64,000 nt of DNA from contig JBBTWP010000004.1 of the NCBI GenBank assembly GCA_038062675.1, positions 6,751-70,750 on the forward strand, given 5' to 3'. Positions 1,229-63,939 of the stretch are shown here, piece after piece. Numbering within the stretch: the stretch's first letter is position 1; each line of letters begins with the position of its first letter. The position numbers were made by a program, and so were the translations under genes. The notes below the pieces were generated by a model. That model saw nothing but the letters and a program-made list of their open reading frames with translations, was not told the origin of the DNA and made no database searches. Source of the stretch: Patescibacteria group bacterium (lineage in GTDB: Bacteria; Patescibacteriota; Minisyncoccia; Phycocordibacterales; UBA1550).

Positions 1229-3202
1229 TTATTTTTTTCCTTCAACGAGCTCGTAGTCGATACTCTTGCGTGCAAGATCGACTAATTTCACGCGAATTTT
1301 TACGGCGTCGCCCAAGGTGTAGCTTTTGCGGGTCTTTTTGCCCACGATGCGGTAGTTTTCTTTTTCAAAAACATAAAAATCGTCACCCAAATTTCCGATG
1401 CGCACAAGCCCTTCGCATTTTGTTTCATTTTCTTCTACAAAAATACCCCAATCGGTAACGCTTGAAATCTTTCCATCAAATGTTTGCCCCACGCGTTCGC
1501 TCATGTATTCGGCTTGCTTGAATTTGATGGATGCGCGCTCGGCATCAGAGGCAAGTTTTTCCATTTCTGATGAATGCAGAGAGAGTGCGCGGTACTCTTT
1601 CATTTCATCTTTTGAAACTTCTTCGCCAGCGAGATAGTGGGAAAGGAGGCGATGCACCATGACATCCGGATAGCGACGGATAGGGGAGGTGAAGTGTGTG
1701 TAGTGCTCGAATGCGAGCCCGTAGTGCCCGATATTTGCGGTGGAATAGGTTGCTTTTGCCATGGTGCGAATCGTCGCCGTGTGAAGCATGGATTCCTCCG
1801 GCTTGCCTTTGATGGCGGCGAGGAGCTTGTTGATATCCTGCCCAAGAACACGTCCTTCTTTGATGGGGAGCTTGTAGCCAAGACGACTCAAGAATATCGC
1901 CAAAGCACCCAAGCGTTCAGGTTTTGGCTCGTCGTGAATGCGGAACACAAAAATGTCATCATCTTTTTGCTTTTTGGAAACAAATTCGGCAACTTTTTTG
2001 TTGGCGAGAAGCATGAATTCTTCAATGAGTTTGTTGGTGTCTTGGGGTACTTTTTTGTAGACGCCGATAGGGCGTTTGTTTTCGTCCAAAATAAACTTTA
2101 CCTCATCGTGGGCAAAGGAAATCGTGCCGTGCGCCTTGTTTTCTTTCTCCAATTTTTTTCCGATAGTGTTGAGGGTGAGGAGTTCGGCGTGGAACATTCC
2201 TGCGCCATCGTCTAAAATTTTTTGCGCCTCTTCATAAGTGAAGCGTTTGTTTGAGTGAATGATGGTGCGCCCAAACCATTGGTCAGTAATCTTGGTGGGG
2301 GCTTTTGGGTCAGCAAGCGATTCTTTTGAAAAAGTAAATACGGCGGAAAAGGTGAGCTTGTCTTCTCCTTGATTCAACGAGCAGAGATCGTTAGAGAGGA
2401 CTTCAGGGAACATGGGAATGACACGGTCGACAAGATAGATGGAGGTGGCACGCCGACGTGCTTCCTCGTCGATTTCGGTGTGTGGCTTAACGTACGCATC
2501 TACGTCGGCAATATGAATACCTACCTCGATAGACCCATCGGGAAGTGTTTGGATAGAAAGCGCATCGTCGAAATCTTTTGCGTCGGCAGGGTCGATGGTA
2601 AATGTAGTTATTGTGCGGAAGTCGCGGCGTTTAGGTACTTCTTCTGCCAAGAGTTTTGGTGCGCGAGCTTTGATTTCGTGTGCCTCCTTTTCGATTTTCT
2701 CGGGAAGCTCCATGGGAAGCCCTTTGTCGAGTACGATGGCGCGAATTTCTGTTTCGTTTTCACCAACAGAGCCAATGATTTCGAGAATCTCCCCTTCAGG
2801 ATTTTTTTTCGGGTCGTCCCATTTAACAATACGCGCGAGCACCTTTTTCCCATCTGCCCCCTCGGGAACCTTGGTGGAGGGGATACGAATATCGACATAC
2901 ATGTGATGGTCTTGGGGCACAAGAAAATATGCATCGGTATCTTTTTCGAGCGTGCCGACAAAGCTCATTTTTGCGCGTTCAAGAATTTCAACTACTTCGC
3001 CCGTCTGTTGTGCTCCTTGTGTCTGAGGGTGAAGAAGAATCTTTACGCGGTCGTGTGAAAGGGCCGTGTTCAGGAACCCTGCCTCAATACGGATGTCATT
3101 TTCGCGAGGACTGTCAGCGCCGAGAGACACAAAACCGAGCCCTTTTCCAGTTGTAGTAATAACGCCTTCTTGGTGCCGACTAAGAGTCTTTTCTTTGTTC
3201 AT
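1229..3202 (-). CDS. rnr: Ribonuclease R (RNB-family 3'-5' exoribonuclease with C-terminal S1 domain)
   Basis: RNB catalytic region (FTIDPADAKDFDDALS, HYGLAFEHYTHFTSPIRRYPD) and a C-terminal S1 fold (GQTFDGKISSVTDWGIFVE). Start placed at MNKEKTL (3202). The track ORF extends to 3286, but that extension overlaps the rpsP upstream region. Confidence 0.9.
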   Translation of the reverse strand: MNKEKTLSRHQEGVITTTGKGLGFVSLGADSPRENDIRIEAGFLNTALSHDRVKILLHPQTQGAQQTGEVVEILERAKMSFVGTLEKDTDAYFLVPQDHHMYVDIRIPSTKVPEGADGKKVLARIVKWDDPKKNPEGEILEIIGSVGENETEIRAIVLDKGLPMELPEKIEKEAHEIKARAPKLLAEEVPKRRDFRTITTFTIDPADAKDFDDALSIQTLPDGSIEVGIHIADVDAYVKPHTEIDEEARRRATSIYLVDRVIPMFPEVLSNDLCSLNQGEDKLTFSAVFTFSKESLADPKAPTKITDQWFGRTIIHSNKRFTYEEAQKILDDGAGMFHAELLTLNTIGKKLEKENKAHGTISFAHDEVKFILDENKRPIGVYKKVPQDTNKLIEEFMLLANKKVAEFVSKKQKDDDIFVFRIHDEPKPERLGALAIFLSRLGYKLPIKEGRVLGQDINKLLAAIKGKPEESMLHTATIRTMAKATYSTANIGHYGLAFEHYTHFTSPIRRYPDVMVHRLLSHYLAGEEVSKDEMKEYRALSLHSSEMEKLASDAERASIKFKQAEYMSERVGQTFDGKISSVTDWGIFVEENETKCEGLVRIGNLGDDFYVFEKENYRIVGKKTRKSYTLGDAVKIRVKLVDLARKSIDYELVEGKK

Positions 3203-3316
3203 ATATTCAGCACACAATACCATAGAATTGTGTATTTTGCATGTTGTGGAGGGTTTTTTGCTTATTTGAGCCCTAAAAATTTGCATTTCTTTGCGACTTC
3301 TGGTAGGATGCTTCTC

Positions 3317-3729: not shown

Positions 3730-3758
3730 ATGCAAGGCAGAAATTGCACTTTTCGATT

Positions 3759-3836
3759 CTGCGGAATCGTGTCGCGCAAGTCCGTTGGGCGCGACCGGCC
3801 TGCGGAATCGTGTCGCGCAAGTCCGTTGGGCGCGAC
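3759..3836 (-). repeat. Two tandem copies (41-nt period) of a 37-nt double-hairpin unit 'U', minus orientation
   Basis: CTGCGGAATCGTGTCGCGCAAGTCCGTTGGGCGCGAC occurs at 3759-3795 and again, identical, at 3800-3836. The reverse complement is GTCGCGCCCAACGGACTTGCGCGACACGATTCCGCAG. The flank at 3837-3853 reads (reverse complement) AAGGTACGGATTTTTT, the same 5' junction as in elements E1-E3. Confidence 0.85.
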
Positions 3837-3877
3837 TAAAAAATCCGTACCTTTGAAACGACACCTCAACCGAAGAA

Positions 3878-3969: not shown

Positions 3970-4281
3970 ATGACCCAAGAACCAGATGTAGTATTTCTTG
4001 AATACGTAGTAAAAGCACTTGTGGATCATCCCAGCGACGTGAGAGTTGGTCGTACTGTTGATGAAATGGGTGTACTTATTACACTCGATGTGAATCCGGG
4101 CGACATGGGTAAGATTATTGGTCGCACCGGCAACACCGCAAAGGCAATCCGCACGCTTCTTCGTGTGGTAGGAATGAAAAATAACGCTCGCGTGAATTTG
4201 AAAATCCATGAGCCCGAAGGTGGGAAGCCTGCATCGCCAACCAAGAGTGTTGACGAGGTGATCGATGGTTTGAAGGTATAG
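3970..4281 (+). CDS. KH-domain RNA-binding protein (YlqC/UPF0109-like)
   Basis: VVKALVDHPSDVRV ... GDMGKIIGRTGNTAKAIRTLLRVVG carries the KH GxxG loop. It occupies the conserved position between rpsP and trmD. Confidence 0.8.
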   Translation: MTQEPDVVFLEYVVKALVDHPSDVRVGRTVDEMGVLITLDVNPGDMGKIIGRTGNTAKAIRTLLRVVGMKNNARVNLKIHEPEGGKPASPTKSVDEVIDGLKV

Positions 4282-4288
4282 TTTTTAT

Positions 4289-4366
4289 TGCCCCCCCAAA
4301 GGACTTACGCGACGCGATTCCGCAGGTTCGTCGCGCCCAAAGGACTTACGCGACGCGATTCCGCAG
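4289..4366 (+). repeat. Two tandem copies (41-nt period) of unit U, plus orientation; the first copy is degenerate at its 5' end
   Basis: GTCGCGCCCAAAGGACTTACGCGACGCGATTCCGCAG at 4330-4366. The copy at 4289-4325 is identical except for its first 6 nt. Differs at 3 of 37 positions from the inverted copies at 3759-3836. Confidence 0.85.
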
Positions 4367-4375
4367 AATCGAAAG

Positions 4376-14031: not shown

Positions 14032-15345
14032 ATGATCAAGAAAAACCCATCAACAAAAAAAATGGCATCATCAAAAAAGCCTGTGGCATCCGCTGGAAAA
14101 AAGAAAGTAATCGAAAAAGAAAAAAAACCTCTCGGTAAAGCGGTTAAAAAGGTTGTGCCAGTAAAAAAGGTTGTGGTAAAAAAGCCGGTGAAAAAAGTTG
14201 TTAAGGCTGCAACCTCAAAGAAACCTGCAGGTAAGGCGGTGAAGAAAGTTGCGTCAAAAACCGGCGGAAAGAAAAGCGGTAACTGGGAAGAAAAAGCGGC
14301 ACGCCTTATTTTAAAGGGTCGCGCGCGCGGATTTATCACCTTTAATGAAATTTTGAAAGAATTTCCACTTATTGAACAGGATATTTTGTTTCTTGATCAG
14401 CTGTATGAAAAACTCGGTGATGCAGGTGTGGATATCCTTGAAAGCGGCGGGCTTTTGGAGATTGAACCCGAGGAAGCGATTTCCCACAAAAAATATATTT
14501 ATAAAAGTGGCGACTCTTCGTACGACTCCATTCAAATGTACTTGAAAGAGATTGGACAGTACCCGCTCCTTTCACCGGTAGATGAGCGCACACTTGCACA
14601 GCGCATTCAGGCGGGAGATATGGAGGCAAAAAATTTACTCGCGCGTGCAAACTTGCGTCTCGTGGTTTCGATTGCAAAGAAATATGTGGGACGCAGTGCG
14701 GATCTTACGCTTCTTGACCTCATTCAAGAAGGGAACCTCGGTCTCTTTAAGGCAGTGGAGAAGTTTGAATGGGAGAAAGGATACAAGTTCTCAACCTACG
14801 CGACATGGTGGATCCGTCAGGCTATTACACGCGCGCTTGCTGATCAGTCACGTACGATTCGTATTCCGGTTCATATGGTGGAAACGATTTCGAAATATAA
14901 GCAGGTGGTGCGCCGTCTCTCGCAAGATCTTGGTCGCGAACCTCTTGCAGAAGAGGTCGCGACAGAAATGGGGCTTGAGGTTGAAAAAATCTATAACATT
15001 AAAAACATTGACCACGACACGGTGTCGCTTGAGAAATCTATTGGAGACGATGACGACAAATCAACGCTTGGTGAATTTATCGCCGATGACAAAATTCTTT
15101 CTCCGGACCAAGAGTCGGCGCGTCGCATTCTTTCTGATCAAGTAAAAGAAATTTTGGACGACCTTTCAGAAAAGGAGCGCAAGATTCTTGAAATGCGCCA
15201 CGGTTTGGTGGGCGGTATTGTACACACACTCGAAGAAGTGGGCAAGGAGTTCGGGGTGACACGTGAGCGCATTCGTCAGATTGAGGCAAAGGCGATTGAA
15301 AAGATTCGCCAACATGAGAAGGTGGGGAAGTTGAAGAATTATTAA
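14032..15345 (+). CDS. rpoD: Primary RNA polymerase sigma factor (sigma70 family) with a Lys-rich N-terminal extension
   Basis: Region 2 (YATWWIRQAITRA), region 3 and region 4.2 (LEEVGKEFGVTRERIRQIEAKA). The first roughly 85 aa are KKxV/AGK-type low complexity. The ATG lies 1 nt after the dnaG stop. Confidence 0.93.
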   Translation: MIKKNPSTKKMASSKKPVASAGKKKVIEKEKKPLGKAVKKVVPVKKVVVKKPVKKVVKAATSKKPAGKAVKKVASKTGGKKSGNWEEKAARLILKGRARGFITFNEILKEFPLIEQDILFLDQLYEKLGDAGVDILESGGLLEIEPEEAISHKKYIYKSGDSSYDSIQMYLKEIGQYPLLSPVDERTLAQRIQAGDMEAKNLLARANLRLVVSIAKKYVGRSADLTLLDLIQEGNLGLFKAVEKFEWEKGYKFSTYATWWIRQAITRALADQSRTIRIPVHMVETISKYKQVVRRLSQDLGREPLAEEVATEMGLEVEKIYNIKNIDHDTVSLEKSIGDDDDKSTLGEFIADDKILSPDQESARRILSDQVKEILDDLSEKERKILEMRHGLVGGIVHTLEEVGKEFGVTRERIRQIEAKAIEKIRQHEKVGKLKNY

Positions 15346-15355
15346 TTCGGCGCTA

Positions 15356-15493
15356 CGTGCGACAAGTCTTTTTCAGGGTACGGATATTCTGGTCGCGCCC
15401 AAAGGACTTGCGCGACACGATTCCGCAGAATCGAAAATCCTGAAGTTCTCGCGCCGTCGCGCTCCCTAGTCCCTGAAAAAGACTTGTCGCACG
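15356..15493 (+). repeat. Structured intergenic element E1 (conserved core, 23-bp perfect outer stem, apical domain = one U unit at 15392-15428)
   Basis: CGTGCGACAAGTCTTTTTCAGGG (15356-15378) pairs perfectly with CCCTGAAAAAGACTTGTCGCACG (15471-15493). The core GGGTACGGAT ... ATCCTGAAGTTCTCGCGCCGTCGCGCTC is shared with E2 and E3. Starts 11 nt after the rpoD stop. Confidence 0.8.
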
Positions 15494-15529
15494 CGCGGAG
15501 TTAATAATGTCTTCATGAAAAAGAAAAAA

Positions 15530-15549
15530 GGCGGACATTCCTGTCCGCC
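15530..15549 (-). terminator. Intrinsic terminator of the 85-aa membrane-protein gene
   Basis: GGCGGACA ttcc TGTCCGCC hairpin. On the minus strand it is followed by CTTTTTTCTTTTTC. Confidence 0.7.
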
Positions 15550-15567
15550 TTTCGAGTTTTAGGCGAT

Positions 15568-20184: not shown

Positions 20185-20481
20185 ATGAAAAACATTCAAG
20201 AAAAAGATATTATTGAAAAGCTGAAACTCGTGAAAGACCCCGAGATTGGGATTGATGTGTGGACATTGGGACTGATTTACAAAATCACTATCGAGAAAGA
20301 TAGCGTAGAAATCCTGATGACGCTCACGACCCCGTTTTGTCCTTTTGCAGATGAGCTTATGGCTGATATAGAAAAGCAGGTGAGTGCATTCGGGTACGCA
20401 AAAGGTGCGGTGCGGGTGGAGCTGACGTTTGAGCCGGCATGGGAACCGTCGGCGGAGCTTCGGCTCATGATGGGGGTTTAA
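20185..20481 (+). CDS. DUF59/MIP18-family Fe-S assembly protein (SufT-like)
   Basis: VKDPEIGIDVWTLGLIY ... LTTPFCPFADEL is the hallmark DUF59 motif. Last gene of the suf unit. Confidence 0.8.
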   Translation: MKNIQEKDIIEKLKLVKDPEIGIDVWTLGLIYKITIEKDSVEILMTLTTPFCPFADELMADIEKQVSAFGYAKGAVRVELTFEPAWEPSAELRLMMGV

Positions 20482-20523
20482 AAAAACTGCCCGCCTTTTT
20501 TTAAAAAGGCGGGCAGTTTTTTT
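20480..20523. terminator. Bidirectional intrinsic terminator
   Basis: AAAAAACTGCCCGCCTTTTT tt AAAAAGGCGGGCAGTTTTTTT. A perfect long hairpin flanked by an A-run and a T-run, between convergent genes. Confidence 0.85.
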
Positions 20524-20543
20524 AAACGTAATTTCCTAGGGTA

Positions 20544-31006: not shown

Positions 31007-31015
31007 GGGTAAGTT

Positions 31016-31140
31016 ACGGAACCGCTTACGCAGTGTGCTGTTGTAAGGGTACGGATTTTTTGAAGCTTAAAAAATCCTGAAATTCTTACGCCGTCGCGTT
31101 CGAAACCCCCTTAAAACAGCACACTGCGACGGGTTTCGTA
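31016..31140 (+). repeat. Structured intergenic element E2 (core 31029-31128)
   Basis: Outer stem CGCAGTGTGCTGTTGTAAGGG / CCCTTAAAACAGCACACTGCG (1 mismatch). Core GGGTACGGATTTTTTgaagcttAAAAAATCCTGAAATTCTTACGCCGTCGCGTTC. Begins 10-23 nt after the response-regulator stop. Confidence 0.8.
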
Positions 31141-31211
31141 ATCTGGCATTTCAAAATGGAAGGACCGAGTGATAGTTATCCACAGGGAACTTTTCTTTTT
31201 CAAGTCCCCTT

Positions 31212-35333: not shown

Positions 35334-35340
35334 GACGCTC

Positions 35341-35435
35341 GCTAAGTTCTTTTTAGGGTACGACTTTTTTGAAGCTTAAAAAAGTCTGAAGTTCTCGCGC
35401 CGTCGCGCTCAAAACCCCCTAAAAAGCAACTTAGC
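35341..35435 (+). repeat. Structured intergenic element E3
   Basis: Outer stem GCTAAGTTCTTTTTAGGG / CCCTAAAAAGCAACTTAGC (1 bulge). Core GGGTACGACTTTTTTgaagcttAAAAAAGTCTGAAGTTCTCGCGCCGTCGCGCTC. Begins 8 nt after the pilB stop. Confidence 0.8.
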
Positions 35436-35546
35436 TCGCTTTAAGGTTAAATGCCGTGTAGGGCACCAAGAAAAAGAAGAGCTCGCTTTACAGTGTCAAT
35501 CTGATGTATAATAAATGTAGTATTCAAATATTGAATTCGCAAATTT

Positions 35547-38632: not shown

Positions 38633-41600
38633 ATGTTAATGAATATAAAAAGGCAAATGATTTTGAAAAAAATTTTTGGATACGTCAAAAAATTTTCTAA
38701 ATTTAGTGTCGTTTTTTTGTTAATTGTAACTTTTGGGTTTGCGGATGTTGCAACAGTGGTTTTTGATGGGCTTGGTGCGCCAAAGTTGGCGCAGTGGACA
38801 GCAATCAAGAAAGCAGAAGCAGTGGCGCAGGGAGATGGAGAGATTATATACGGCGATAGTAATGCTAGTCTTGTAAGGAGAAGAGATTGGACAGGAACTT
38901 TCAGCGTGGAGTATGACACCCTTGCTGCTGGAACAGTAATTCGCCATGTTGTCATTAAAGCTTCACCGGTTAGGAATGAAATGATTGCCGGTATACAAAC
39001 CACTGCAGGCACGCTTTACATACAACGCTTTAATGGCACAAGTTGGTCCAATGAGTGGAATGTGACGGTTGGTGATGGAAATCTCCCTCGTTTTGACATC
39101 AGCTTCGAGGGCACTTCTGGAGATATGATGGTGGTGTATACAGGCAACACAGCCACTGACGGACAGGAACTGGTGTATAGAATTTGGAATGGCTCTACTT
39201 GGACTGTTGCGGCCAATTTGGGCTCAACGAGAACGACTGGCATTGTTGACGGTATAGCTATGGAGCGTCGCGGAGGCACTGATGAAATTGCGCTTGTGTA
39301 CGGAGACAGAAACTTCGACCTTTCGGCAAATTTTTGGGATGGTGCAACAAATGCATGGAAGGGGGAGCCGTCGGCAGCATTGGAAACAAGCTTGGCAAAA
39401 GTGGGAACCGCGACGACTCTAACTAACTTTTCTTTTGACCTTGAATTTGAATCCACATCCGGCGAGCTTTTGATTGTGTGGGGTGCTGATGCAGTGTTGG
39501 ACGGCAAGTATGTCACTCGTGGTGCTGGGCCGGCAGGCGCGTGGGGTTCTGTTACCACCAATACGGCTTTTCTTGAAGAGCCGACTGATGTGGAGCTTTC
39601 TGCCGACCCAAACTCAAATTACATTGCGTATGCGAATAGCTCGGATAACGGCGCAGACTCCGATGCCATAGTCTGGACGGGCACTGCGTGGGGGACGGCG
39701 TTTCAAGTTGACGCTTCAAACGACACGGTGGGTGCCGGAACAAGTAACAATGCGGTAAACTGGGTGACGAGTGGTGCCCAGACGCGTGCTGTGCTCACCT
39801 ACGACGATGCCAATGCAGCGGGTGTTGACTGGGCAGTATATAACAAAAATACCAATGCATGGGCTCTCCAAACCGACTGTACTACCGCTTGCTCGTCGCA
39901 ACCACTGAGTGGTGACGATAAGGTTCATCGTTTGCGACGCAATCCGTTTAATCAAGCTGAACTTCTTTTTTTGGGAGTAGATAACACTTCCGATTTATGG
40001 GTGAAAAAATTGGTCTTCGACGGAACTAATTTCACATGGTCAAATGCCGATGGCGGAGTAGCTCTTGAAACTGTGATATCGAGCGTTACCGGTTTTGCGG
40101 CAGATTTTGCATACAATAGGTACATTCCTCCTACGGTTACCACCACCCTTGCGACCGGCTCCGACCCTGCCGCCGCTACTATTGCCCCCGAAGCTGTAAC
40201 GACCGATGTAAATCAGTTTACTCTGCAGACAAGCAGTGGAACGGAAACAGTAACGTCGGTTACAGTGAATCTTTCAACCGGCAGCGGGGTGGATTCGCTT
40301 TATATTACTGATAATACCAATACGGTTTTGGGTTCAATAATCGCGCCGCTGTCGGGGGGCTCTAATGTGGTTGCCGTTTCGGGGATGTCAGCAGGTACAT
40401 CCGCCACAACATTCAAGGTTCGTGTTACTCCCCTGCCTCACAGTTTAATGCCAGCAGTGACGGGTGCAGCATACGCCATCACCGCACCCGTCACTGCATG
40501 GGCGGGGAATGCCACGACACACGCGGGGAGTGATACGAATACCAATGCACTTACAATTGACAATGCATCCCCTTCGGGAGCTACAAGCGCAAGTGGTACA
40601 GCAGGTGACGCAAAGGTAACACTCAACTGGACGACATCGGCGTCCACCGATTTTAGTCGCTCGGTGATGCTCCGGTGGACAGCATCAACGCCGAGTGCAG
40701 CGGTGCCCGAAGAGGGGACGGATTATGCGAATGGGAATACTGTTGGTAGTGGTTCAAAAATTGACTACAATACAGGAGCCAGTCCCATAGGTGTCGCCTT
40801 CGACTCCTCCACCAACTCTGTTTGGGTGGTGAATAGTGGTGGCAATACTGTCACCAAGCTCACCGCTGCCACTGGCGCTTTGGTGGGAACATATACAGTG
40901 GGAAATGCTCCTCGAGATGTCGCCTTCGACTCCTCCACCAACTCTGTTTGGGTGACGAATACTGGTGGTGGTTCCGGCAATACTGTCACCAAGCTCACCG
41001 CCGCCACCGGCGCCTTGGTGGGAACATATACAGTGGGAACTGGTCCTTTTGGTGTCGCGTTCGACTCCTCCACCAACTCTGTTTGGGTGGCGAATAATGG
41101 TAGTGGTTCCGGCAATACTGTCACCAAGCTCACCGCCGCCACCGGCGCCTTGGTGGGAACATATACAGTGGGAACTGGTCCTTTTGGTGTCGCGTTCGAC
41201 TCCTCCACCAACTCTGTTTGGGTGGCGAATAATGGTAGTGGTTCCGGCAATACTGTCACCAAGCTCACCGCCGCCACCGGCGCCTTGGTGGGAACATATA
41301 CAGTGGGAACTGGTCCTTTTGGTGTCGCGTTCGACTCCTCCACCAACTCTGTTTGGGTGGCGAATAATGGTAGTGGTTCCGGCAATACTGTCACCAAGCT
41401 CACCGCCGCCACCGGCGCCTTGGTGGGAACATATACGGTGGGAACTGGTCCTCGAGATATCGCCTTCGACTCCTCCACCAACTCTGTTTGGGTGGTAAAT
41501 AATGGTGGAAATACTGTCACTAAGCTCACCGCCGCCACCGGCGCTTTGGTGGGAACATATACGGTGGGAACCGGTCCCATAGATGTCGCCTTCGACTCCA

Positions 41601-43132
41601 CCACCAACTCTGTTTGGGTGGTGAATAATGGTGACGATACCGTCACCAAGCTCACCGCCGCCACCGGCGCTTTGGTGGGAACATATGCAGTGGGGGTCAG
41701 TCCCATTAGTGTTGCTTTCGACTCCTCCACCAACTCTGTTTGGGTGGTGAATAATGTTGGCGAAACCGTCAGCAAAGTGGATGCAGTGGGCGCCACGGTT
41801 GTCTGTGTCCGCACTGATGCTGCATCGACCGCCATTACCGACATCAACGGTGCCGGTGGCACCAGCTGTCTCACTACCGCCCTTACGAACGGCACCGCCT
41901 ACAGTTACAAAGTTTTCCAAAAAGACGCAAATGGCAACTATGACGCCGGTGTCGTGCCGACGGGTTCGCCGTTTACACCAGCTGCCATCACAACCACGCT
42001 TGCCACTGGTTCCGACCCTGCCGCGGCAACAATCGCCCCCGGAGCCGTCGCAACTGATGTTGATTTATTTACTTTGCAAACAAGCAGTGGAACGGAAACA
42101 GTAACTTCGGTGACGGTGAACCTTTCGACAAATAGTGGTATCGGTTTGCTCGCCATTACCGACAATGCAAACACTGTTTTGGGGTCGACTGCATCGCCGG
42201 TTACGGGTTCTAACGTTATTACGGTCTCAGGTATGTCAGCAGGTACCACGCTCACCACGTTTAAAGTCCGCGCCACACCTCTCAGTCATGCGCTGATGCC
42301 CGCACCTGCAGGCGGTGCGTACGCCATCACTGCGCCAGTGACAAGCTGGGCGGGAGCAAATACGCACGCAGGGAGTGATACAAACTCCAATGCGCTAACG
42401 ATTGACAACGGGTCGCCTGCTGGCACAACAGGCGCTGGCGCGGTAGCTGGGAACGCACAGGTCACGGTGAGCTGGACGAATCCTGCTGATGCTGATTTTC
42501 AAAAGGTAATTATTTATTGTAAGACCGCAAGCATCACTGAAACGCCAACAGAAGGATCTGATCCAACGGTGGACGTCGCCGCCTGCGACGCAACAGCACG
42601 TGTCAAGTATAATGGTTCAATAAGCCCGCAGATTATCACCGGCCTCACTAACGGTACGTTGTATTATTTTAGAATTTATGCGCGTGACACCAACGGTAAC
42701 TTTACCGCTATTGCATCTACACAGCAGGTTTCTGCTACGCCCGCGGCTGGAGGCGGACTCCCCGTTTCAGGGACACTCACCTCTGGGGTTTTTGACACAG
42801 GAACTGCTGATGGGGCGACGTTTAATTCTATTTTATGGAATGGAACCACTATCGGGACAGGAGCAGTACGCTTCCAGTTTTCGGCATCGAATAGTAGTAC
42901 AGGTCCATGGGACTATAACGGAGCAGGTTCAGGGACATGCGGGGCATTGGACTGGTTTAACCCCGGAGCTCTTGATACCGCTGTGGAGCTAAAGGGTTCT
43001 GGATGCGCAGCGCTTTGGAACAACAAACGATACTATCGTTACAAGGTACAGATTTGTTCCGCCGCAAATTGTACTGATGTTGGTGCTACTAGTCCTATTA
43101 TAAATAAAATTGTTGTCAGTTGGTCACCGTAA
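38633..43132 (+). CDS. Giant (1499 aa) membrane-anchored/secreted surface protein: N-terminal Trp-repeat propeller-like region, module A1, 8 YVTN-type beta-propeller repeats, module A2, C-terminal Ig/Fn3-like region. Candidate pilus-associated adhesin.
   Basis: N-terminal hydrophobic anchor (FSVVFLLIVTFGF). Seven W-containing repeats spaced 50-65 aa apart. Eight repeats of NTVTKLTAATGALVGTYTVGtGPxgVAFDSSTNSVWVaNnG match the 40-residue YVTN propeller repeat pattern. Encoded inside the minor-pilin operon. The exact start (38633 vs 38657) is uncertain. Confidence 0.85.
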   Translation: MLMNIKRQMILKKIFGYVKKFSKFSVVFLLIVTFGFADVATVVFDGLGAPKLAQWTAIKKAEAVAQGDGEIIYGDSNASLVRRRDWTGTFSVEYDTLAAGTVIRHVVIKASPVRNEMIAGIQTTAGTLYIQRFNGTSWSNEWNVTVGDGNLPRFDISFEGTSGDMMVVYTGNTATDGQELVYRIWNGSTWTVAANLGSTRTTGIVDGIAMERRGGTDEIALVYGDRNFDLSANFWDGATNAWKGEPSAALETSLAKVGTATTLTNFSFDLEFESTSGELLIVWGADAVLDGKYVTRGAGPAGAWGSVTTNTAFLEEPTDVELSADPNSNYIAYANSSDNGADSDAIVWTGTAWGTAFQVDASNDTVGAGTSNNAVNWVTSGAQTRAVLTYDDANAAGVDWAVYNKNTNAWALQTDCTTACSSQPLSGDDKVHRLRRNPFNQAELLFLGVDNTSDLWVKKLVFDGTNFTWSNADGGVALETVISSVTGFAADFAYNRYIPPTVTTTLATGSDPAAATIAPEAVTTDVNQFTLQTSSGTETVTSVTVNLSTGSGVDSLYITDNTNTVLGSIIAPLSGGSNVVAVSGMSAGTSATTFKVRVTPLPHSLMPAVTGAAYAITAPVTAWAGNATTHAGSDTNTNALTIDNASPSGATSASGTAGDAKVTLNWTTSASTDFSRSVMLRWTASTPSAAVPEEGTDYANGNTVGSGSKIDYNTGASPIGVAFDSSTNSVWVVNSGGNTVTKLTAATGALVGTYTVGNAPRDVAFDSSTNSVWVTNTGGGSGNTVTKLTAATGALVGTYTVGTGPFGVAFDSSTNSVWVANNGSGSGNTVTKLTAATGALVGTYTVGTGPFGVAFDSSTNSVWVANNGSGSGNTVTKLTAATGALVGTYTVGTGPFGVAFDSSTNSVWVANNGSGSGNTVTKLTAATGALVGTYTVGTGPRDIAFDSSTNSVWVVNNGGNTVTKLTAATGALVGTYTVGTGPIDVAFDSTTNSVWVVNNGDDTVTKLTAATGALVGTYAVGVSPISVAFDSSTNSVWVVNNVGETVSKVDAVGATVVCVRTDAASTAITDINGAGGTSCLTTALTNGTAYSYKVFQKDANGNYDAGVVPTGSPFTPAAITTTLATGSDPAAATIAPGAVATDVDLFTLQTSSGTETVTSVTVNLSTNSGIGLLAITDNANTVLGSTASPVTGSNVITVSGMSAGTTLTTFKVRATPLSHALMPAPAGGAYAITAPVTSWAGANTHAGSDTNSNALTIDNGSPAGTTGAGAVAGNAQVTVSWTNPADADFQKVIIYCKTASITETPTEGSDPTVDVAACDATARVKYNGSISPQIITGLTNGTLYYFRIYARDTNGNFTAIASTQQVSATPAAGGGLPVSGTLTSGVFDTGTADGATFNSILWNGTTIGTGAVRFQFSASNSSTGPWDYNGAGSGTCGALDWFNPGALDTAVELKGSGCAALWNNKRYYRYKVQICSAANCTDVGATSPIINKIVVSWSP
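40775..41785 (+). repeat. Tandem coding repeats (126-135 bp) encoding the YVTN blades; 40970-41420 is a perfect 135-bp x 3.3 array
   Basis: GGTTCCGGCAATACTGTCACC... recurs at 40970, 41105, 41240 and 41375 (exact 135-bp spacing). I saw no substitutions until about 41421. Confidence 0.9.
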
Positions 43133-62140: not shown

Positions 62141-63055
62141 TTAGTTATTAAGCCCACTATTTGAGTTTGCGACCTCAAGCCGGCTGTAGTAGTTGAAGAT
62201 CGCTTTGATGCCTGCCAGATTACGTTCCCACTCGACGGTTTCGTGAGTGCTAAGTTCTACGGTAATCGCTGGTATGTTGATTGAGGCGAGCCACCCCTCG
62301 GCATCTCCGGAAGTTTCGTATGCAGTGAATGATTTTATTGCGTTGTATTTTGACGCTTTTGCGTATGCATTCATGAGGTCAAGTGTTTTTGGAAGAATGC
62401 CAGCCTGACACTCTGATGCATAAACAGCATTTGCTTTGCTGTGCCAAAAGATAGCACTGTCGGGATTGTGTGCGATGACGAAGTCGCGAATGGCAACTGC
62501 CTCCGGCTCTGAAAATGCTTTTGTCCCGGCGCTTACAACCTTACTCTTCCACATGCTTTTTGGTTTCCATTTGCAGTCAAAATTGCGATTGAGGTCCACA
62601 CTGTGCGCATTGAATCGTCCTGACTCGACAAGTTTAGTGCTGTCGGAAACATCTCCAGCTGTAAAGCGACCTTCTTTCCTTACTACTCGAAAAAGTCCGT
62701 CGGGGTTGGCTGAAGGAATAATCGAAATCGTGAGGTTTTTTGGAATAAAGTCAGGATTTGCTTTTACGTAGTCTATGAATTGATACGCCAGAAGAACACT
62801 GTTCCATTCATAACCACCGTGGACACCACCCACAAAGAGGAGACGAGTCTCACCTGTTCCGTAAGTGTATGCTTCTATTGCACGACCCTCTACTGAGGTG
62901 CCGACGATTTCTTTTTCGGCCTGAATGGGCTTTGCGACTATTGGAATCGGCGCGTGTGTCGCTTTGTATTTCTGCATGAGGATAAAGATTCCAAAAGAAA
63001 AGAGTGCAATTACGCTGAGAGCAACGAAGACATTTTTTTTAAAGAAGGCCGGCAT
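62141..63055 (-). CDS. M14-family zinc carboxypeptidase (membrane-anchored), paralog A
   Basis: GGVHGGYEWNS zinc-ligand region, NPDG, DLNRNFDCKWKP, and a downstream H (IFWHS). N-terminal TM anchor. Confidence 0.85.
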   Translation of the reverse strand: MPAFFKKNVFVALSVIALFSFGIFILMQKYKATHAPIPIVAKPIQAEKEIVGTSVEGRAIEAYTYGTGETRLLFVGGVHGGYEWNSVLLAYQFIDYVKANPDFIPKNLTISIIPSANPDGLFRVVRKEGRFTAGDVSDSTKLVESGRFNAHSVDLNRNFDCKWKPKSMWKSKVVSAGTKAFSEPEAVAIRDFVIAHNPDSAIFWHSKANAVYASECQAGILPKTLDLMNAYAKASKYNAIKSFTAYETSGDAEGWLASINIPAITVELSTHETVEWERNLAGIKAIFNYYSRLEVANSNSGLNN

Positions 63056-63939
63056 TATTGGCGGAGCATGTTCAAAACTGCATCAATACCCGCTTTGTTT
63101 TTTGTCCACTCAGTGTCTGTGTGTGTAGTGAGAAGTACGCTAATCGCAGGAATTTCTTTCTTTGCAAGCCAGTTTGTCATATCTCCCGCTGTCTCGTAGA
63201 AGTCGAAACTGTCGTATGCTTTGTATCCCGAGGCGGTTGCATAAGTGCTGGTCAAGAGTTTTGTTTCAGAAGAGATGCTCTTGTCGCAACTTGAAGAAAA
63301 CACACCCCCCGCGGAGCTGTACCACACAACAACCGCAGCAGGATTGTTTGCCTCGATATAGTTTTTAAACGCTTGGCTCTCTGGTTCAGAGAAAGCGCTT
63401 GTTCCACCACTAACGGTTTTTTCCATCCAGACTCCTTTTGGTTTCCAGTCACAATCAAAGTTGCGATTGAGGTCTACATTGTTTGCATTGAAACGACCTA
63501 GAACCACAGTGTCTTTTGAGGAAGATACATCTGCTGGAGTAAAACGTCCCGCTGTCCCTACTGTTTTGTTGAGACCGTCAGGATTCAAAACAGGGATGAC
63601 GGTTACTTTTGCGTCTTTAGGGATGATGGTTGGGTTTGCGGTGAGGTAGTCCATGAGCTCATATGCTACGAGAACCGTGTTCCATTCATAGCCACCATGA
63701 ATACCGCCCACAAACAATAATTCCTTGGTTCCGGTACCAAAATGGTATGCAGTAATGTCACGTTTTTCAACAGAGGTACCGAGGACTGTTTTTGTTTTGT
63801 CCTTAGTTTCTGTTTGGGTGCTTGTTGGTGCACCTTTGTTTTCTGTTTCCGGAGCAACGCTCGGAGAAGGTTTGGTTAAAAAATAAATACCGACAGCGAT
63901 AATAATCACACCTACGATAATAATAATTGTTTTTTTCAT
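63055..63939 (-). CDS. M14-family zinc carboxypeptidase (membrane-anchored), paralog B
   Basis: GGIHGGYEWNT, NPDG, DLNRNFDCDWKP. Its stop overlaps the start of paralog A (TAATG). Confidence 0.85.
   Translation of the reverse strand: MKKTIIIIVGVIIIAVGIYFLTKPSPSVAPETENKGAPTSTQTETKDKTKTVLGTSVEKRDITAYHFGTGTKELLFVGGIHGGYEWNTVLVAYELMDYLTANPTIIPKDAKVTVIPVLNPDGLNKTVGTAGRFTPADVSSSKDTVVLGRFNANNVDLNRNFDCDWKPKGVWMEKTVSGGTSAFSEPESQAFKNYIEANNPAAVVVWYSSAGGVFSSSCDKSISSETKLLTSTYATASGYKAYDSFDFYETAGDMTNWLAKKEIPAISVLLTTHTDTEWTKNKAGIDAVLNMLRQ

Follow-up and report, generated by a model that had tools for sequence, protein, structure and literature searches.

Hairpin elements in the window

The window, by which we mean the whole stretch of 64,000 nucleotides that was analysed, holds three intact and two decayed copies (in 64 kb) of an interspersed element that we call E, and one of the intact copies, E1, carries a second and smaller repeat, U. 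The intact copies follow rpoD, a response-regulator gene and pilB, and the truncated ones flank khpA within rpsP-khpA-trmD; a gene for RNase R is found at 1229-3286. The RpoD protein of the window is closest to Yonathbacteria proteins. The elements, with a terminator that lies near one of them, are as follows.

3745..3864, minus strand: truncated E[UU] without a 3' half, between rpsP and khpA and antisense to both
4270..4374, plus strand: second truncated E[UU], made up of the E-like junction GAAGGTATAGTTTTT, a degenerate U, an intact U and then AATCGAAA
15356..15493, plus strand: E1, a complete E with U in the tip of P2 (E[U] type), by covariance model and fold
15526..15553, either direction: GC-rich terminator hairpin, separate from E1 and downstream of it, with an A-run before and a T-run after
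31015..31141, plus strand: E2, a canonical E of the long-arm subfamily; core 31040-31118, 86.9 bits; fold z = -7.8
35337..35454, plus strand: E3, a canonical E with the P2 variant GACTTTTTT/AAAAAAGTC; core 35349-35427, 89.2 bits

E1 lies directly 3' of the rpoD stop codon (15343-15345) and has the same architecture as E2 and E3, a long stem that closes a three-way junction. It folds with an MFE of -70.2 kcal/mol (z = -7.7), and covariance model R1 matches it at 15369-15482 (47.4 bits, E = 2.9e-9). Its parts are listed below.

15356..15378, plus strand: 5' arm of P1, pairing with 15471-15493 (23 nt, 100% complementary)
15379..15391, plus strand: junction TAC (15379-15381), 5' strand of the P2 base GGAT (15382-15385) and linker ATTCTG (15386-15391)
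15392..15433, plus strand: U module (nhmmer, 58.4 bits)
15437..15470, plus strand: 3' half, with the P2 3' strand ATCC, the junction TGAAGTTCT, P3 and J31
15471..15493, plus strand: 3' arm of P1, completing the 23-nt inverted repeat

The 5' junction of E1 is GGGTACGGAT, and its 3' half, CTGAAGTTCTCGCGCCGTCGCGCTC, is identical to that of E3 (two matches in the window, none expected by chance). P3 reads GCGC-CGTC-GCGC at 15451-15462, and J31 is atypical, with TCCCTAGT where the E family has TCGAAAC. The sequence of the P1 5' arm is found in no other copy, except for TTTTTCAGGG. An earlier note on this DNA had described E2 and E3 as carrying GGATTTTTT-gaagctt-AAAAAATCC, or a GACT/AGTC variant, and E1 as carrying GGATattctg-U-aatcgaaaATCC in the place of that hairpin; a base-level check of the window agrees with both descriptions. 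E1 keeps the P2 base GGAU/AUCC, with the loop swapped for attctg-U-aaa. As for the other two intact copies, E2 follows the response-regulator gene, precedes a pilin-like gene and has the outer helix ACGGAACC/GGGTTTCGT, and E3 lies between pilB and pilC. Both strands of the E elements fold equally well.

The same note had identified the E1 insert with the unit U that recurs in tandem at 3759-3836 and 4289-4366, and this identification is correct. The U pattern matches four times in the window, with no match expected by chance. The units are those at 15392-15428 (plus strand, in E1), at 3800-3836 and 3759-3795 (minus strand, identical to each other) and at 4330-4366 (plus strand); a further one, at 4289-4325, is degenerate, having lost the 5' arm of hairpin 1. 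The predicted two hairpins are recovered in the fold of the E1 copy (z = -2.65), where hairpin 1 pairs 15392-15398 with 15410-15416 around the 11-nt loop CCAAAGGACTT and hairpin 2 pairs 15418-15423 with 15428-15433 around the loop CGCA. The length originally given to U was 37 nt; the functional unit is longer, at 42-45 nt, and includes both hairpins.

The degenerate fourth element that had been proposed on the minus strand is indeed present at 3745-3864, as the 5' junction AAGGTACGGATTTTTT followed by two U units and then AATCGAAAAG. It retains a remnant of the P1 5' arm, GGTGTCGTTTCAAAGG, which is homologous to the arms of the elements at two loci elsewhere (L069 and L082). In the plus-strand tandem (4282-4374), the E-like 5' junction gives khpA its last codons and its stop. 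The stretch 3751-3843 and the 4270..4374 element form 93-nt inverted repeats around khpA. At the three U loci, homology reaches past U, to the 5' junction and, on the 3' side, to AATCGAAA. Because both tandem loci keep an E-type 5' junction together with AATCGAAA, we read them as truncated E1-type copies and not as free U arrays.

E is a repeat family of Patescibacteria with a conserved core

An exact-pattern scan for the E 3' half, made on one genome per bacterial species, returned 76 loci. A real E is present at 66 of them (67 matches, up to eight per genome), all in Patescibacteria or in MAGs without an assigned phylum, under the labels Nomurabacteria, Paceibacterota, Yonath-, Adler-, Yanofsky- and Saccharibacteria; the other ten fall in GC-rich coding sequence from other phyla and match by chance. 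Using nhmmer and covariance model R1, we count 89 E copies at E <= 2e-5 in 784 kb of fetched Patescibacteria DNA, a number which, like all copy numbers and proportions given here, is biased because the loci were fetched through E, U or neighbouring genes; the E pattern also misses E[U] copies with diverged 3' halves. When the window is compared with all fetched loci, the elements are the sole DNA-level alignment. Several E copies lie at contig ends, and repeats break metagenome assemblies.

An E unit of 110-150 nt consists, in order, of P1, J12 (UAC), P2, J23, P3, J31 and the return strand of P1. The three-way-junction core of about 75 nt is nearly invariant, being more than 90% identical between lineages whose protein-coding DNA can no longer be aligned, with conservation highest at the unpaired bases of the junction. 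In the consensus, P2 is GGAUUUUUU-loop-AAAAAAUCC (the loop being gaagcuu in E2 and E3), J23 is UGAARUU (UGAARUUCU in E2 and E3), P3 has a CGNC loop and a 2x2 UC/UC internal loop, and J31 is AAAC; E2 and E3 form P3 around CGCCGUCGCG, followed by the junction CUCGAAAC. The closing stem P1, of 20-35 bp, has a subfamily-specific sequence and keeps its pairing despite this divergence. Its only part shared across copies is (T)TTTTnAGGG / CCCTnAAAA beside the core, and the outer part of P1 adds a median of about 25 further pairs. The long-arm subfamily (E2 and the E[U] of locus L080) conserves an outer helix, ACRAAACUC/GAGUUUYGU, together with an internal loop.

Covariance analysis, one of the checks that the earlier note had named, reveals compensatory changes in the E helices as well as in both hairpins of U. 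In a MAFFT alignment scored against a hand-drawn structure (A3), 84.5% of the cells are in standard pairs, and double changes are seen at 17 of 26 pairs, where shuffles give 7.9 +/- 1.7 (none of 500 as high); controls with the structure slid along the alignment also stay below the observed value. In a second alignment (A4), which was fitted to the covariance model and so leans towards it, double changes occur in 25 of 26 pairs and the covariation score is 0.207 versus 0.066. Since two registers are present side by side (GCCGG...CCCCUU and AGGG...CCCCCUA), RNAalifold did not recover P1 from the raw MAFFT alignment, a problem that was remedied by the hand-drawn structure and the covariance model. 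Among the individual helices, P3 alternates between GCGC-CGUC-GCGC, GGCU-CGUC-AGCC and AGGC-CGUC-GCCU, and its extension between C-G, G-C and U-A, with the 2x2 UC/UC internal loop sliding along the helix; P2 alternates between GGAUUUUUU, GGGAUUUU and GGCGAUU, with matching partner strands.

Extra hairpins occur in E at peripheral places only. The P2 tip holds a GC hairpin in L013b, J23 holds a hairpin in L013a and L013c, the P2 loop is longer in L027b and L067b, and J31 of L080 contains an insert of about 60 nt, so the suggestion that E tolerates alternative apical domains is borne out. Three copies from one genome (L013a, L013b and L052a) are especially clear: they have their arms and core in common, similarity stops at the foot of the hairpin, and one carries the J23 hairpin, one the P2 hairpin and one neither. 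The shared arms and core indicate that these inserts are recent and arose within a single subfamily.

Neither family has an Rfam match. Rfam 15 gave no match at the gathering threshold over the whole window, and permissive scans of the E1 and E2 regions (E <= 10 and E <= 1) returned miRNA and sRNA noise far below threshold. A tRNA/tmRNA scan had no match. In IMG/VR, the E scan hit one chance match in a GC-rich coding region and the U scan hit nothing. A literature search found no description of such repeats in Patescibacteria/CPR. By these searches, both families are previously undescribed.

Position and strand of E

The foot of P1 lies 0-10 nt from a stop codon. On the basis of simple ORF calls, 21 copies lie between convergent genes and three between divergent ones; of the 31 that lie between co-directional genes, 22 are in sense and 9 in antisense orientation (about 30%). 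E and its upstream gene share a strand in 52 copies and have opposite strands in 14. Many copies are found 10-50 nt before the next co-directional gene. The pairs themselves give no strand signal: in the P1 duplex, G-U and A-C combinations number 138 and 119, and among the core pairs 111 and 47, but 91 of these 111 G-U come from two fixed positions, and without them the numbers are 20 and 43.

Gain, loss and relocation between relatives

The order rpoB-rpoC-dnaG-rpoD-(small ORF)-sufB is conserved, and the site after rpoD is occupied as follows.

Window, after rpoD: E[U], then the GC-rich terminator
L093, after rpoD: E[U] with different arms; 77.5% DNA identity, the alignment being continuous from rpoD into the element
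L092, after rpoD: E with a plain A/U hairpin and an unrelated arm; RpoD 95% identical to that of the window
L094, after rpoD: terminator only, no E; RpoD homolog with 87% identity over the aligned part
L098/99, after rpoD: terminator only, no E; RpoD homolog with 89% identity over the aligned part

The DNA of L092, the closest of these relatives, and that of the window are 87% identical, and this identity ends exactly at the rpoD stop codon. The two differ by the whole element and not by a clean exchange of the apical domain: the contrast between U and a plain hairpin, first seen within one genome, recurs between genomes at the rpoD site, but with the whole element involved. The terminator at 15526-15553 is retained in the relatives without E.

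Two further comparisons show the same behaviour. E3 is 89% identical over 121 nt, including the arms and a 15-nt tail, to an element (L053) of a Yonathbacteria MAG, located after a ribonucleotide reductase gene. L053 is not an ortholog of E3, as tblastn finds neither pilB nor pilC nearby; it is the same element at another locus. At khpA, the closest relative (L101, with a TrmD 97% identical) shares the khpA promoter region of the window and lacks U, and its khpA ends in ...AAAATGTAA instead of the ...AAGGTATAG of the window; three more relatives (L102, L104 and L105) have neither E nor U around khpA. The comparisons at rpoD, L053 and khpA together show that whole units are gained, lost and relocated at the DNA level. 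The presence of both families varies among close relatives, which is the behaviour of mobile DNA, although their folds are conserved as in functional RNAs.

U spreads on its own and within E

U is a separate double-hairpin repeat. A metagenome scan found it at 15 loci, which correspond to 11 distinct places, and nhmmer added further copies. In seven copies the pair C7-G19 is replaced by U7-A19, and hairpin compensation is also seen from U-A to C-G (the L093 rpoD copy) and from C-G to U-A (L082a). U is usually flanked by a T-run before and an A-run after.

Lone copies of U are found at L084 and L087/88, and tandem pairs at L077/85 and L082, where the fold places a duplication of 41 nt within the hairpin 2 loop. 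At L078/81, L079, L083 and L086, U is nested in the loop of a diverged U-like hairpin, and these nested copies sit just upstream of start codons. Two copies lie in frame within genes. In L093 (10046-10089), U adds VASKGLTRHNPAGS to the Lys-rich N-terminus of RpoD, a segment that is missing in four orthologs; in L104 (2614-2658), a copy read in a frame unlike that of the rpoD copy adds SRPKDLRNPIPQN to TrmD, and the trmD of the window is the empty site. The segments that U encodes in these two proteins are 13-14 residues long. The occurrence of U outside E, alone, nested and intragenic, therefore shows that it spreads on its own as DNA, as the earlier note had considered when it called U an independently mobile module; both of its alternatives, a mobile U and an E tolerant of exchange, are supported by the census.

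U is also recurrent within E. The tip of E carries it in three genomes: besides the window, intact E[U] elements occur after rpoD in L093 (GCA_039732045.1) and at another site in L080 (Ga0075988_109), and decayed ones at L082 (two copies), L089/90, L091 and L105 (5784-5900). That E1 might be a single chimera, produced by local rearrangement of an E copy with the U tandems at 3.7-4.4 kb, was the outcome that would have spoken against the earlier note. E1 is the sole intact E with U inside the window and is 98% complementary to 3750-3796, both of which fit such an origin. Against it, E[U] is present at the orthologous site in L093 and at a different site in L080, with decayed copies in at least four further contigs, so the census refutes a unique local event and we hold this explanation to be scarcely credible.

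The boundary between E and U is identical across all E[U] copies, and the search for target-site duplications around U that had been suggested saw none. The fixed boundary argues that E[U] is mostly a propagating composite subfamily and not the result of repeated fresh insertions; this is the best-supported reading, with E1 as a member. L080 and E1 belong to different arm subfamilies, which leaves two origins for E[U]: repeated formation at one and the same point, or shuffling from one subfamily to another. At L091 a 30-nt direct repeat encloses the decayed E[U]; local duplication is a likelier source of this repeat than target-site duplication.

Two other ideas about U were discarded. A pseudoknot between the U loop (GGACU) and J31 (AGUCC) of E1 has a comparable partner in L080 (AAGUC), but L093 shows no covariation (CGACU versus UAAGCC). 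The U tandems were also considered as CRISPR or TIGR arrays. Such arrays have unique spacers of at least 20 nt between their repeats. The tandems have two units per locus and spacers of 4-5 nt (GGCC, GTTC, ACTA and AGCTG), unlike CRISPR or TIGR arrays (PMC12045711).

Discussion

Our work describes two repeat families of the class Paceibacteria (formerly Parcubacteria). Both are multi-copy, and whole units, including the arms, are found at unrelated loci of different genomes. U is inserted as DNA, in some cases within a gene and in frame, and small hairpins, U among them, nest at the periphery of E, in the P2 tip, J23 and J31. We lean, with a little more than even confidence, towards reading E and U as small, non-autonomous, hairpin-forming interspersed repeats that are mobile in the manner of REPs and MITEs. 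No mobilising gene or transposase was found in a Pfam scan of the 30 ORFs of the window, nor a mobilising gene among the annotated genes of L092-L105, and no target-site duplications or conserved terminal inverted repeats of E were seen at the boundaries. These absences, the conservation of the core and of its unpaired bases and the maintained pairing of the arms weaken a purely selfish reading; such conservation of core and unpaired bases is more typical of functional RNA than of selfish DNA.

A rival reading places function first and regards E as primarily a cis-acting structured RNA (a processing or stability element, a protein scaffold or an undiscovered ribozyme) that selection keeps after many genes. 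U and the other small hairpins would then be peripheral domains that can replace one another, and their spread as DNA would come second. The nearly invariant three-way junction with its conserved single-stranded bases, the compensatory changes in P1, P2 and P3, the restriction of extra hairpins to the periphery, the higher conservation of the core than of the adjoining coding DNA and the sense bias relative to the upstream gene (52 versus 14) all fit this idea. It has difficulty, however, with the antisense copies between co-directional genes (9/31), with G-U pairs that are not in excess over A-C, with presence, absence and replacement at one locus among close relatives, and with the same unit standing at unrelated loci; nor is E tied to any gene class or matched by an Rfam family, and U also lies inside coding sequences, where no E domain is possible. 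On balance we find it rather unlikely. The pairing without a strand signal, the use of both orientations and the palindromic character of the elements would suit protein-binding or structural sites on DNA (BIME-like nucleoid or gyrase sites, uptake or recombination signals) that are kept for that role, and type IV pilus and competence-type genes adjoin E2 and E3. Yet the core is asymmetric and built of three helices, unlike known uptake sequences or Xer/attC sites, and integron attC sites conserve their outer R''/R' boxes and vary in the centre, the reverse of E, so that we consider DNA-level sites improbable.

A decorated bidirectional intrinsic terminator, with P1 as its stem and a core that only stabilises an A/U-rich hairpin, would explain why E is found at gene 3' ends, at convergent sites far more than at divergent ones, why many Nomurabacteria-type copies begin with an A-run and finish with a T-run, and why both strands fold equally well. 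Intrinsic terminators combine a GC-rich stem with a U-tract directly after it. No T-tract follows P1 in E1, E2 or E3, a strong run of T (at least six in seven) marks the 3' foot of just about 8 in 79 copies, and many copies lie shortly before a co-directional gene. Around E1, a terminator search flags only the separate GC-rich hairpin, the one kept in relatives without E. E does not conform to a canonical terminator, and we rate a terminator role as a poor prospect for the family. A real function of the E core, as RNA or ssDNA, seems to us possible but doubtful. In the same tentative spirit, we could speculate that the E core is a new, Paceibacteria-specific functional structured nucleic acid, a catalytic or protein-read three-way junction carried on a self-propagating hairpin, with U-type double hairpins as exchangeable peripheral domains.

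Several known repeats resemble E or U in part. ERIC (IRU) is, like E, an imperfect palindrome of about 125 nt with tens to hundreds of copies. Its size variants reportedly stem from internal insertions at fixed sites (work attributed to Sharples & Lloyd in 1990 and Hulton in 1991). ERIC elements lie in transcribed intergenic regions and 3' ends, are highly conserved across genera and affect mRNA decay (PMC10969869). They have no sequence relation to E. Conservation in ERIC falls on the arms; E conserves its asymmetric three-helix centre instead, with arms that vary but keep their pairing. REPs, for their part, are palindromes of 20-40 bp with an unpaired GTAG/CGTC tag at one end, found downstream of ORFs and sometimes within genes, and are plausibly RNA elements (PMC3733652). 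U is similar in being a GC-rich palindrome of 20-40 nt that is mostly downstream of ORFs, sometimes in tandem and sometimes intragenic, and E recalls the REPIN as a long hairpin of about 100 nt. However, U is not a tagged REP: it has no unpaired tag, its 5' flank is (T)TG/TCG and its 3' flank ACGATTC, and CGTC occurs in E only as the loop of P3. Likewise, the U tandems are direct repeats with 4-5-nt spacers and not the inverted pairs of a BIME, E does not consist of a REP in each arm, and RAYT, the Y1 transposase that mobilises REPs and whose gene the repeats flank, is absent from the 30 ORFs of the window.

The behaviour of U also resembles that of the Rickettsia palindromic elements, which insert in frame into unrelated housekeeping genes (PMC10969869). 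U, too, is a small palindromic repeat of a reduced genome that lies in frame in rpoD and trmD, but the Rickettsia elements measure about 150 bp against about 45 nt, share no homology with U and belong to a different phylum. The Correia elements (CREE) of Neisseria are interspersed and co-transcribed with genes, and their inverted repeats form a long RNA duplex that is cut by RNase III (PMC10969869). A long duplex is also the mode that we propose for the P1 stem of E. In contrast, E shows none of the conserved terminal inverted repeats, TA target duplication or IHF site that characterise Correia elements. Among hairpin modules, the double-hairpin elements of Allomyces are a mitochondrial example. 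Mitochondrial double-hairpin and repetitive hairpin-forming elements are small GC-rich modules of one or two hairpins that invade intergenic regions, loops of other structures and coding sequence, with no recognisable transposase (PMC2800124). They are organellar and without sequence relation to U, and nesting in a second conserved element is not among their described features.

E and U were also compared with other classes. They have some traits of MITEs, being multi-copy, non-coding, shorter than 300 bp and polymorphic in insertion between relatives; conserved terminal inverted repeats are absent, as the arms differ completely between subfamilies, and no flanking target-site duplication is seen at the boundaries of E or U. 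PATEs, derived from IS200/IS605, have sub-terminal hairpins at both ends and insert strand-specifically 3' of a fixed tetranucleotide without duplication, with a TnpA in the genome. The P2 and P3 of E could be such end hairpins, and duplications are not seen here; neither a fixed target motif nor a TnpA was identified. Hammerhead ribozymes have three stems around CUGANGA ... GAAA ... NUH, with invariant, unpaired A9 and G12. E shares the three-way junction, has CUGAAGU... and ...CGAAAC flanking one hairpin and has GUA before another; it is not a hammerhead, as position 9 is U and not A (CUGAAGU), the register of stem I does not fit, variants replace the G of GAAA by C or A, at a position that pairs in the extended P3 (C-G, G-C or U-A), and no Rfam hammerhead model matches.

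How E could act can be outlined from its position and shape. E would land immediately after stop codons and be co-transcribed with the upstream gene, probably at gene 3' ends, and its RNA may form a long, junction-capped duplex that acts on the 3' end of the mRNA. By analogy with Correia and ERIC, this duplex might serve as an entry site for RNase III or as a block to 3' exonucleases. The conserved junction may be the recognition surface for a putative protein, either the mobilising enzyme or an RNA-binding factor, and a need for a long duplex, but not for a given sequence, could preserve the pairing of the arms as these diverge.

The genomes of Patescibacteria measure about 1 Mb, and the group is thought to discard DNA that is not essential. 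This lineage nonetheless keeps many copies of a 110-150 nt element whose core is better conserved than the neighbouring genes. In practice, such repeats can be misread as sRNA genes or as CRISPR-like repeats. If E and U are selfish, hairpin repeats without a recognisable transposase can thrive and nest in minimal genomes, and can supply core proteins, sigma-70 and TrmD among them, with extra peptide segments. A functional core, on the other hand, would be a widespread, uncharacterised RNA or ssDNA motif with more than 80 examples and good covariation. Finally, should E prove to be a new functional class, some of the smallest bacterial genomes would contain natural RNA or ssDNA building blocks that are modular and can be nested in one another.

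Repeats around khpA

Two truncated copies of E[UU], the hairpin repeat E carrying two units of the double-hairpin repeat U in the tip of its P2 helix, provide inverted repeats of 93 nt that are 84% complementary:

Window 3751-3843: first arm
Window 4282-4374: second arm

These arms, separated by 438 nt, enclose the entire khpA gene, and by pairing within an rpsP-khpA-trmD transcript they could form a stem around it. The two U units of one E[UU] locus resemble each other more than they resemble units of the other locus. In close relatives, a BrnT/BrnA-type toxin-antitoxin pair lies between khpA and trmD (loci L101:518-1036 and L104:1836-2354), at the place taken by the U tandem in the window; this intergenic site is an insertion hot spot.

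U at and within genes

In two relatives of the window organism, U lies in frame inside coding genes, and the reading frame used differs between the two:

L093:10046-10089: U in rpoD, where the Lys-rich N-terminus gains 14 residues
L104:2614-2658: U in trmD, adding 13 residues

A composite of U inside a U-like hairpin recurs in other metagenomes (L078/L081, L079, L083, L086), where it immediately precedes the start codons of genes that are unrelated to one another (those for EF-Ts, LeuRS and membrane proteins), and its 3' end reads ...GATTTYGYWAAATCA(A)ATG.

Variants of E

A long-arm subfamily of E (window 31015-31141, L016, L069, L074, L061:2540-2680 and L080) has, beyond the closing stem P1, a conserved outer helix (ACRAAACUC/GAGUUUYGU) and an internal loop of about 6x6, which together bring its length to about 150 nt. 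Three further elements are E-like and divergent:

L052:5129-5206, minus strand
L045:1504-1582
L093:11429-11541

Their P2 is GC-rich or their junctions are altered (for example, UGCUAUGCUC), and one of the three stands head-to-head with a canonical E. All retain the P3 type with a CGUC loop, and this common helix suggests a wider superfamily.

Other features of the window

A perfect 25+25-nt palindrome (GTTTAAAAAAACTGCCCGCCTTTTT/AAAAAGGCGGGCAGTTTTTTTAAAC, 20476-20527) between convergent genes is a textbook bidirectional terminator, and exemplifies the ordinary terminators of this genome. Seven to nine tandem units of 135/126 nt, 64-96% identical (40706-41796), lie within a 1499-aa ORF (38633-43132) beside the genes for the type IV pilus. 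The probable product is a repetitive protein, either located at the surface or associated with the pilus. Two adjacent M14 carboxypeptidase genes (62141-63055 and 63055-63939) are paralogues; at the DNA level they form repeats D5 and D8, with an identity of about 71-73%.

Direct repeats and contig ends

One decayed E[U], an E with a single U, is flanked on both sides by a direct repeat of about 30 nt (ccggccgaaaagttacttgagcgtaacttt):

L091:3690-3800: decayed E[U]

The repeat takes in the 3' end of a gene, and could reflect either duplication of the local sequence or a target duplication of unusual length. Elsewhere, E copies coincide with contig ends:

L013:16-121
L052:7397-7436
L057:7949-8000
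L092:3541-3576

Two of these ends are probably parts of one copy. Metagenome assemblies are thus broken by E repeats.
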